Part shown: one piece after another, positions 43,762 through 46,389 of the stretch
Numbering within the stretch: position 1 is the stretch's first letter
Layout of the letters: every line of letters starts with the position of its first letter
DNA from: Escherichia coli
Lineage (GTDB): Bacteria > Pseudomonadota > Gammaproteobacteria > Enterobacterales > Enterobacteriaceae
Assembly: GCF_044647545.1 (NCBI RefSeq)
Contig: NZ_CP172818.1
Length of the DNA stretch: 64,000 nucleotides
Direction: 5' to 3' (one strand)
Notes under the pieces: generated by a model
Databases searched by the model: none
What the model was told of the DNA's origin: nothing
What the model saw: only the letters and a program-made list of their open reading frames with translations
Program-made: the position numbers and the translations under genes

Positions 43762-46389
43762 TTATTCTTCTTCTGGCTCGTCGTCAACGTCCACTTCCGG
43801 AGCGATTTCATCGTCCCCTTCCGCGGCACTGCCGTCGATGGTATCCAGATCTTCCTCGTCAACCGGTTCAGCAACACGTTGCAGACCCACCACGTTTTCA
43901 TCTTCCGAAGTACGGATAAGGATTACGCCCTGGGTGTTACGGCCTACGATGCTGATTTCCGAAACGCGAGTACGTACCAGCGTACCGGCATCGGTGATCA
44001 TCATGATCTGGTCGCAGTCATCTACCTGCACCGCGCCAACCACTAAACCGTTACGTTCGGTAACCTTGATGGAGATAACCCCTTTCGTCGCACGCGACTT
44101 GGTTGGGTATTCCGCCACTGCGGTACGTTTACCATAACCGTTCTGCGTTGCGGTGAGGATTGCGCCATCGCCACGAGGCACGATCAGAGAGACGACTTTA
44201 TCGCCTTCGCCTAAACGAATACCACGAACACCGGTGGTGTTGCAGCCCATCGCACGGACAGAAGACTCTTTAAAGCGCACCACTTTACCTTCAGCGGAGA
44301 ACAGCATTACTTCGTCTTCGCCGCTGGTCAGGTCAACGCCGATCAGCTCATCGCCTTCAACCAGTTTGATCGCCACTTTACCGGCGGTACGCAGACGGTT
44401 GAACTCGGTGAGGACGGTTTTCTTCACAGTACCGTTAGCGGTCGCCATGAAGACTTTCACGCCTTCTTCAAACTCGGTCACCGGCAGGATCGCGGTGATA
44501 CGTTCGTCCTGTTCCAGCGGCAGCAGGTTGACGATCGGACGACCACGCGCGCCACGAGTAGCTTCTGGTAACTGGTAGACCTTCATCGAATAGACGCGGC
44601 CACGGCTGGAGAAGCACAGAATATGGTCGTGAGTGTTCGCCACCAGCAGTCGGTCGATAAAGTCTTCTTCTTTAATACGTGCGGCAGATTTACCTTTCCC
44701 GCCACGACGCTGCGCTTCATATTCAGAAAGCGGCTGATACTTCACGTAACCCTGGTGAGAAAGCGTGACCACCACATCTTCCTGGGTGATCAGATCTTCC
44801 AGGTTGATGTCGGCGCTGTTAGCGGTGATTTCGGTACGACGTTTGTCACCGAACTGTTCACGAACCAACTCCAGTTCTTCACGGATCACTTCCATCAGAC
44901 GATCGGCGCTACCAAGAATACGCAACAGTTCCGCAATCTGATCCAGCAGCTCTTTGTATTCGTCGAGCAGTTTTTCGTGCTCAAGGCCGGTCAGTTTCTG
45001 CAGACGCAGATCCAGAATCGCCTGAGCTTGCTGTTCGGTCAGGTAGTACAGACCATCACGCACGCCGAACTCTGGCTCCAGCCATTCCGGGCGCGCAGCA
45101 TCGTCGCCCGCACGTTCCAGCATCGCAGCAACGTTGCCCAGCTGCCACGGATTTGCAACCAGCGCGGTTTTCGCTTCTGCAGGCGTCGGCGCATGACGGA
45201 TCAGTTCGATGATCGGGTCGATGTTCGCCAGCGCCACGGCTAATGCTTCAAGGATATGAGCACGATCGCGAGCTTTACGCAGTTCGAAAATAGTACGACG
45301 GGTCACTACTTCACGGCGGTGACGAACAAACGCCGCGATGATGTCTTTCAGGTTCATGATCTTCGGCTGACCATGGTGCAATGCCACCATGTTGATACCG
45401 AAAGAAACCTGCAACTGGGTCTGGGAGTAGAGGTTGTTGAGCACAACTTCACCGACCGCATCGCGTTTCACTTCAATCACGATGCGCATACCGTCTTTGT
45501 CAGACTCGTCACGCAGCGCGCTGATGCCTTCCACGCGTTTTTCTTTTACCAGTTCCGCAATCTTCTCGATCAGGCGCGCTTTGTTTACCTGATACGGAAT
45601 TTCGTGGACGATAATGGTTTCACGTCCGGTTTTGGCGTCAACTTCTACTTCGGCACGGGCGCGGATATATACCTTGCCGCGACCGGTACGGTAAGCTTCT
45701 TCAATACCGCGACGACCGTTAATGATTGCCGCCGTCGGGAAGTCCGGCCCCGGGATGTGTTCCATCAGCCCTTCAATGCTGATGTCTTCATCATCGATAT
45801 ACGCCAGACAACCGTTGATGACTTCCGTCAGGTTGTGCGGCGGGATGTTGGTTGCCATACCTACGGCGATACCGGAAGAACCGTTCACCAGCAGGTTAGG
45901 AATTTTGGTTGGCATGACGTCCGGAATTTTTTCCGTACCGTCATAGTTATCAACGAAATCGACCGTCTCTTTTTCGAGATCAGCCATCAGTTCATGGGCA
46001 ATTTTCGCCAGACGGATTTCCGTATAACGCATTGCCGCCGCAGAGTCGCCGTCGATGGAACCGAAGTTACCCTGACCGTCTACCAGCATGTAACGCAGCG
46101 AGAATGGCTGCGCCATACGGACGATCGTGTTATAAACCGCCAAGTCACCATGGGGATGGTATTTACCGATTACGTCACCAACGACACGGGCAGATTTTTT
46201 ATAGGCTTTGTTCCAGTCATTGCCTAGTACGTTCATGGCGTAAAGTACGCGACGGTGTACCGGCTTCAGGCCATCTCGGACATCTGGCAGCGCACGGCCA
46301 ACAATGACCGACATCGCATAATCCAGATAGGAGCTCTTCAGCTCTTCCTCAATGTTGACCGGTGTAATTTCTCTCGCAAGGTCGCTCAT
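43762..46389 (-). CDS. gyrA: DNA gyrase subunit A carrying QRDR substitutions Leu83 and Asn87
   Basis: 875-aa ORF; QRDR reads [15 protein letters not shown] (codon 83 TTG at 46141-46143, codon 87 AAC at 46129-46131). Confidence 0.97.

Follow-up and report, generated by a model that had tools for sequence, protein, structure and literature searches.

A gyrA allele with the S83L and D87N fluoroquinolone-resistance substitutions in a chromosomal segment of ST648-type Escherichia coli

The window analysed here, a stretch of 64,000 nucleotides of E. coli DNA, contains what we judge with about 95% probability to be the gyrA gene from the chromosome of an ST648-type strain, with the well-known target-site fluoroquinolone-resistance allele S83L + D87N. 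The resistant allele is the wild-type allele of its own lineage with exactly two point mutations. The sequence, its derivation, the intermediate form and the prevalence of the pair come from the comparisons described below, and the mechanism and the effects on minimum inhibitory concentration (MIC) are taken from the literature.

The gyrA gene and its quinolone-resistance-determining region

The gene is an 875-codon open reading frame on the minus strand, and its translation is full-length. The features of interest are the following.

43762..46389, minus strand: gyrA coding sequence (DNA gyrase subunit A), 875 codons plus stop, from the list of open reading frames and the translation
46072..46191, minus strand: quinolone-resistance-determining region (QRDR), codons 67–106; the MG1655 counterpart contains GDSAVYDTIV
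46141..46143, minus strand: codon 83, TTG (Leu); Ser (TCG) in K-12 and in the wild-type allele of the lineage
46129..46131, minus strand: codon 87, AAC (Asn); Asp (GAC) in K-12, in the wild-type relatives and in M25631H, which has S83L only
46024..46026, minus strand: codon 122, the catalytic Tyr, present and intact
44356..44358, minus strand: codon 678, GAA (Glu), in the C-terminal domain; Asp (GAC) in K-12
43906..43908, minus strand: codon 828, TCG (Ser), in the C-terminal domain; Ala (GCG) in K-12

The limits of the QRDR, codons 67–106, follow the conventional definition, and Tyr122 is the residue that acts in DNA cleavage and religation. The protein belongs to the GyrA family, with 1305.6 bits over residues 8–840 against the NCBIfam gyrA equivalog model TIGR01063 (cutoff 877), and it falls under the cutoffs of both of the topoisomerase IV ParC models compared with it (TIGR01062 and TIGR01061). 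The E. coli GyrA structures 6RKS and 6RKU match the protein from end to end, and the GyrA box, QRRGGKG, is intact at residues 560–566. The neighbourhood aligns colinearly, and its order, yfaA - gyrA - ubiG - yfaL - nrdAB, is that of MG1655 and also that of the complete genome of strain ECONIH1; the gene is chromosomal gyrA in its normal location.

A base-by-base comparison with the MG1655 reference gene (NC_000913.3 2336793..2339420) gives 62 nucleotide differences (97.6% identity), with 58 synonymous codon changes and exactly four amino-acid differences: S83L (TCG>TTG), D87N (GAC>AAC), D678E (GAC>GAA) and A828S (GCG>TCG). A first-pass annotation, made from the sequence alone, had read Leu (TTG) at codon 83 and Asn (AAC) at codon 87, and both readings are correct on the minus strand, as is their placement at 46129..46143. 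Its statement that the wild type has Ser83 and Asp87 agrees with the MG1655 alignment, and the two further departures from K-12 that it suggested with some reserve, Glu in the KLVEGDEL segment and Ser in LIRTSEDEN, are D678E and A828S. In contrast to the K-12 gene, the window allele thus has 58 synonymous codon differences together with D678E and A828S, in a phylogroup F background.

Lineage of the source

The full gyrA gene is 100% identical at the nucleotide level in the complete genomes of many strains, including the one named 'ST648', IMT16316, ECONIH1 (NZ_CP009859.1; GyrA RefSeq protein WP_001773998.1) and MS14385. A 25-kb query around gyrA finds ECONIH1 and MS14385 among its best 25 matches, all of which are 100.0% identical, and identity of at least 99% is seen in only 62 of the 5,687 matching records (5,425 genomes). 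Across positions 22000..64000 of the window there are zero mismatches to ECONIH1, and across 1..22000 there are two synonymous SNPs and one 21-bp deletion. PMC8454413 gives ST648 as the type of both ECONIH1 and MS14385, and ST648 belongs to phylogroup F and is mostly of serogroup O1 (PMC8710580). The window includes ccm, nap, eco, mqo, ompC, rcs, ato, yfa, gyrA, nrd and glp genes but none of the seven MLST loci (adk, fumC, gyrB, icd, mdh, purA, recA), and we therefore infer the sequence type from the near-identity to ST648 genomes; on this basis the source is probably an ST648-type (phylogroup F) E. coli. That the source is something other than wild-type K-12, as had been proposed from the QRDR, is borne out more broadly, because there is not a single mismatch to ST648-type genomes in gyrA or in the DNA of about 42 kb that surrounds it.

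The same lineage also includes genomes with a susceptible-type gyrA. We searched the complete genomes with a reverted allele, that is, the window gyrA with C at gene position 248 and G at 259, and found it at 100% identity over 2,628 bases in nine of them, which are relatives of the drug-naive type; one further complete genome is a single base away. At least 43 complete genomes have the window allele itself, counted as those scoring exactly two differences (bits 4843) from the reverted allele, a score equal to that of genomes directly matched to the window allele. Three of the relatives were read at the four positions at which the window differs from K-12, as follows.

CLSC36, O1:H42, human urine: Ser83, Asp87, Glu678, Ser828
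1428, dog: Ser83, Asp87, Glu678, Ser828
M25631H, chicken meat: Leu83, Asp87, Glu678, Ser828
Window: Leu83, Asn87, Glu678, Ser828

The sources of the isolates with an allele identical to that of the window include a wild bird, a dolphin, dogs, a pig and the environment. The first-pass annotation had concluded that the source is a quinolone-exposed lineage; exposure fits the history of the lineage, but given these isolates it need not apply to this isolate.

Effects on gyrase and on ciprofloxacin susceptibility

Ser83 and Asp87 lie on helix IV beside the DNA-cleavage site, where they anchor the water-Mg2+ bridge that positions the keto-acid of the fluoroquinolone in the gyrase-DNA cleavage complex. 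Replacement by Leu83 removes one anchor and adds bulk, and Asn87 removes the acidic anchor, such that the drug is unable to stabilise the cleaved complex; catalysis is kept, and both Tyr122 and the GyrA box are unaltered in the window. Published experiments are in keeping with this mechanism. Ciprofloxacin-induced cleavage is strongly reduced in E. coli gyrases with S83L or D87N singly, the purified double mutant S83L/D87N shows essentially no response to the drug at concentrations up to 500 µM, and the bridge anchors are described as Ser83 and Asp87, with the bulk of Leu83 adding steric disruption (Carter et al. 2023, PMC9917921). There is no difference of substance between the window allele and the S83L + D87N allele known from these and other studies (PMC2714960, PMC9917921) and from resistance point-mutation tools.

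The consequences for susceptibility are best seen in isogenic derivatives of MG1655, for which ciprofloxacin MICs have been reported (Marcusson et al. 2009, PMC2714960, Table 1):

Wild type: 0.016 µg/ml
GyrA D87N: 0.25 µg/ml
GyrA S83L: 0.38 µg/ml
GyrA S83L + D87N: 0.38 µg/ml, equal to S83L alone
GyrA S83L + ParC S80I: 1 µg/ml
GyrA S83L + D87N + ParC S80I: 32 µg/ml, with a relative fitness of 1.01 and so no measurable cost

These values show that the GyrA pair is necessary, but not sufficient, for the high-level genotype. The pair had been described in the first-pass annotation as the classic high-level fluoroquinolone-resistance genotype; the pair is indeed present, but alone it gives an MIC of 0.38 µg/ml, and reaching 32 µg/ml requires ParC S80I. 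The lack of a fitness cost would account for the persistence of the allele in hosts without obvious drug exposure, such as the wild bird, dolphin, dogs and pig noted above.

Companion changes in parC and parE

The parC and parE genes are absent from the window and are situated about 1 Mb away. In ECONIH1, ParC differs from that of K-12 by S80I (codon ATT) and D475E, and ParE differs by T172A and S458A, the last of which has been reported as the characteristic ParE change of ST648 (PMC8710580). We also searched with the ECONIH1 parC gene reverted to AGT at codon 80; the K-12 codon, AGC, is two base changes from ATT. This sequence is present with 100% identity in eight genomes, seven of which are among the nine with wild-type gyrA and the eighth of which is M25631H, and AGT is the wild-type codon 80 of the lineage. 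In the genomes that are listed in both searches and have the window gyrA allele, parC is always exactly one base from the lineage wild type, with codon 80 itself read directly in ECONIH1 only. The path in the lineage would thus lead from the wild type to GyrA S83L, and from there to ParC S80I and GyrA D87N, with these two unordered.

Because parC and parE, together with marR, acrR and any plasmid-borne qnr or aac(6')-Ib-cr, are outside of the window, the resistance level of the source is judged from its relatives. High-level resistance is likely, going by the ParC S80I and ParE S458A of the closest complete genome, and the GyrA pair with these two changes, as seen in the closest genomes, would make up the usual multi-step high-level genotype. 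The source might instead have the GyrA pair alone with wild-type ParC and ParE, and thus low-level resistance with a ciprofloxacin MIC of about 0.4 µg/ml, as in the isogenic strain with both GyrA changes (0.38 µg/ml; PMC2714960). Both genes are beyond the window, and the source has private indels that set it apart from every complete genome, such that its own parC could differ too. We consider this unlikely: unless ParC is also changed, adding D87N does not raise the MIC (PMC2714960), which means that selection for the pair by itself is rare, the genome of ECONIH1 carries both companion substitutions, and parC is one base off the wild type in the listed genomes with the window gyrA allele.

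Origin of the two substitutions

The two QRDR bases are the only differences between the window gyrA and the nearest natural wild-type allele, and the pair is thus derived relative to the susceptible-type allele of its own lineage (nine genomes, with three relatives read). The explanation is stepwise mutation of the lineage's own gene, because the reverted allele is present in nine relatives and a relative with S83L only exists. The pair arose by two single-base mutations, S83L first, and the surviving S83L-only form is consistent with that order. The two substitutions also go beyond chance expectation: about nine resistance changes are known at codons 83 and 87, and the chance that two random substitutions would both be among them is roughly estimated at 1e-6.

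Homologous recombination provides another route, in which a resistant QRDR is imported from a different lineage that is itself resistant; such an import has been proposed for ST1193. The 30-base QRDR sequence is common to 1,370 genomes from many lineages including ST131, and a very short patch with borders identical in donor and recipient would leave no further trace. Import nonetheless appears very unlikely here. The rest of the 2,628-nt gene is the lineage's own wild-type allele, and the 22.6 kb around gyrA differ between the window and CLSC36, 1428 and M25631H by no more than one or two additional SNPs, apart from the small indels of the window; neither in the gene nor in these flanks, compared with the three relatives, is there any sign of an imported tract. 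Moreover, M25631H has S83L on the same allele and within the same flanks, which is what stepwise mutation predicts. Stepwise mutation is therefore the reading we favour.

Other departures from related genomes

There are several further changes in the window, most of them private with respect to ECONIH1, which lacks the 1-bp deletion in yfaL, the intergenic deletions of 3 bp and 21 bp, the 1.87-kb deletion between inaA and glpQ, and the two synonymous SNPs. The yfaL/ehaC autotransporter gene has lost one base (CCC>CC near 49007) and is split into open reading frames of 734 and 513 amino acids; it is intact, with 1,252 codons, in all four of the relatives checked (ECONIH1, CLSC36, M25631H and 1428). 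The 3-bp and 21-bp deletions are both intergenic.

The segment missing between inaA and glpQ, 1.87 kb in length, consists of the 5' portions of two genes, one for an MFS transporter and one for a LysR regulator. It is kept by every ST648-type complete genome, and the best matches to the window align in two pieces. The junction in the window has exactly the endpoints of a truncated form seen in 3,111 genomes, among them K-12 with its yfaH pseudogene, where the flanks are different. The gap was first considered as a unique private deletion, and this reading was revised given how common the same endpoints are, on different flanking sequence. The junction of the window, with the truncated endpoints between ST648-type flanks, has no 100% match among the complete genomes, and it seems that the same microhomology-mediated deletion has recurred here independently.

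A different type of change affects the α2-macroglobulin gene (36767..41281, minus strand), which has a nonsense codon, Q670* (CAG>TAG at 39274), and is 5 kb from gyrA, or about 4.5 kb between the gene ends. This change is also present in ECONIH1 and is absent from the three other relatives checked (two with wild-type gyrA and one with S83L only).

D678E and A828S

Glu678 and Ser828 are already present in the relatives with Ser83 and Asp87 (CLSC36 and 1428). In a survey of gyrA alleles defined at the protein level, of the genomes with gyrA-0 (D678E, A828S) 3 are resistant and 637 susceptible, and of those with gyrA-6 (S83L, D87N, D678E, A828S) 15 are resistant and none is susceptible (Hyun et al. 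2020, PMC7067475); the four substitutions of gyrA-6 relative to MG1655 are the same as those in the window. That D678E and A828S add to resistance or compensate for it was considered and rejected as a reading that the data require, given their presence in the lineage's Ser83/Asp87 allele and the overwhelming susceptibility associated with gyrA-0. They are neutral lineage markers, not resistance changes.

The same four substitutions have been reported in ST1193, of phylogroup B2 (PMC10638923). Glu678 and Ser828 occur in several fluoroquinolone-resistant clones that are successful worldwide (ST648 and, as reported, ST1193), and we considered whether they might interact epistatically with S83L + D87N, lowering its cost or raising its benefit, or whether the linked α2-macroglobulin Q670* might have been co-selected or hitch-hiked. 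The data that bear on either idea are of co-occurrence only, and we give both very little credence, taking Glu678 and Ser828 as markers of the lineage.

Prevalence and significance

The frequency of the pair was gauged with 30-base queries spanning codons 81–90 and a 28-base exact seed, such that a match must hold both diagnostic bases and the base at codon 85. The genotypes are distributed among complete E. coli genomes as follows.

L83 + N87, codon 85 GTT: 1,370 genomes
L83 + N87, codon 85 GTC: 331 genomes
L83 only, codon 85 GTT: 413 genomes
Wild type, codon 85 GTT: 2,014 genomes
Wild type, codon 85 GTC: 639 genomes

Together the five genotypes cover 4,767 of 5,426 complete genomes. The L83 + N87 pair is present in at least 1,701 of the 5,426 complete RefSeq E. 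coli genomes (31%), a proportion that is not a population frequency, as the collection is probably enriched for clinical isolates. The presence of the pair on two synonymous codon-85 backgrounds points to repeated independent origin, and with about a third of the complete genomes carrying it the pair is ordinary.

The remaining concern, that the substitutions result from errors of sequencing (a possibility raised with the first-pass annotation) or assembly, or else are neutral polymorphisms unrelated to drug selection, draws on the small indels of the window (the 1-bp deletion in yfaL and the 3-bp deletion), which could be assembly errors, but it is effectively refuted by the presence of the same 2,628-nt gene, 100% identical throughout, in at least 43 complete genomes that were sequenced independently, by the recurrence of the pair on two synonymous backgrounds, by the change of both bridge-anchor residues (a chance of about 1e-6), by the direct biochemical and genetic evidence of effect (PMC2714960, PMC9917921), and by the link between susceptibility and this allele in its wild-type form (PMC7067475).

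Earlier work has established the mutations and how they act, the order of the steps and how prevalent they are; the allele is already known, and there is nothing scientifically new in it. What is added is small, namely a clean series within one lineage, from wild type to S83L to S83L + D87N, on an otherwise identical allele. For annotation and surveillance the allele is of use in that it places the source in a fluoroquinolone-resistant clade of the ST648 type that is internationally distributed and multidrug-resistant. If ParC S80I and ParE S458A are present as in the closest relatives, the source would be predicted to show clinical resistance to ciprofloxacin.

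Companion substitutions in ParC and ParE

Both topoisomerase IV genes lie outside the window, and were located in ECONIH1, the closest complete genome (ST648), whose gyrA is identical to that of the window:

ECONIH1 locus L008, 31165..33423: parC
ECONIH1 locus L008, 47324..49216: parE

The lineage encodes ParC S80I by ATT, which arose from a lineage-specific wild-type codon, AGT, where K-12 has AGC; codon 80 is still AGT in M25631H, a relative with S83L only in GyrA. S458A is present in ECONIH1 ParE. We note that, outside the window, one collection record labelled as a plasmid also contains gyrA at full length with the L83/N87 sequence; the label or the assembly of this replicon is probably wrong.

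Disrupted genes

There are two instances of genes interrupted by a small change:

36767..41281, minus strand: α2-macroglobulin family gene (yfaS-like), with a SNP at 39274
47399..51156, minus strand: yfaL/ehaC, autotransporter adhesin gene, with an indel at ~49007-49009

The first has a nonsense codon, Q670* (CAG>TAG). The same codon is present in ECONIH1, where the gene is annotated as a pseudogene, and the gene is unbroken in three relatives whose gyrA has either Ser83/Asp87 or S83L alone; in the set of genomes compared, the knockout thus tracks with carriage of D87N. In K-12, yfaS is likewise a pseudogene.

In yfaL/ehaC, one base is deleted near codon 717 (CCC>CC), which leaves two open reading frames, one at 48952..51156 (734 aa) and the other at 47399..48940 (513 aa), separating the C-terminal part, which presumably holds the translocator domain, from the remaining protein. 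The gene is whole (1,252 codons) in ECONIH1, M25631H, and the Ser83/Asp87 relatives CLSC36 and strain 1428, and the deletion could be either a true pseudogenisation or an assembly error.

Departures from ECONIH1 and a deletion between inaA and glpQ

Further small differences from ECONIH1 are as follows:

9631: synonymous SNP, napA
~12079..12083: 21-bp deletion, just downstream of eco
19800: synonymous SNP, ompC codon 11
~54159: 3-bp deletion (GTG), nrdA-nrdB spacer

The two SNPs are the only ones in positions 1..22000, and OmpC is otherwise identical. Both deletions are intergenic, in stretches that resemble REP repeats, and the 3-bp deletion is absent from CLSC36, M25631H and strain 1428.

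A larger departure is between inaA and glpQ:

~56543..56555: deletion junction

About 1.87 kb present in all ST648-type complete genomes is missing here, comprising the 5′ parts and divergent promoter region of MFS transporter and LysR regulator genes. The endpoints are those of a truncated arrangement in 3,111 of 5,426 complete E. coli genomes; K-12 is one of these, and there the arrangement is the yfaH pseudogene. The flanking sequence is nonetheless 100% ST648-type, and no complete genome searched matches the junction at 100% (best match, 98.3%), which together with the shared endpoints suggests that the same deletion has occurred more than once, between CCCAGCAGATAAA and CCCCACAGATAAA, a pair of short imperfect repeats.
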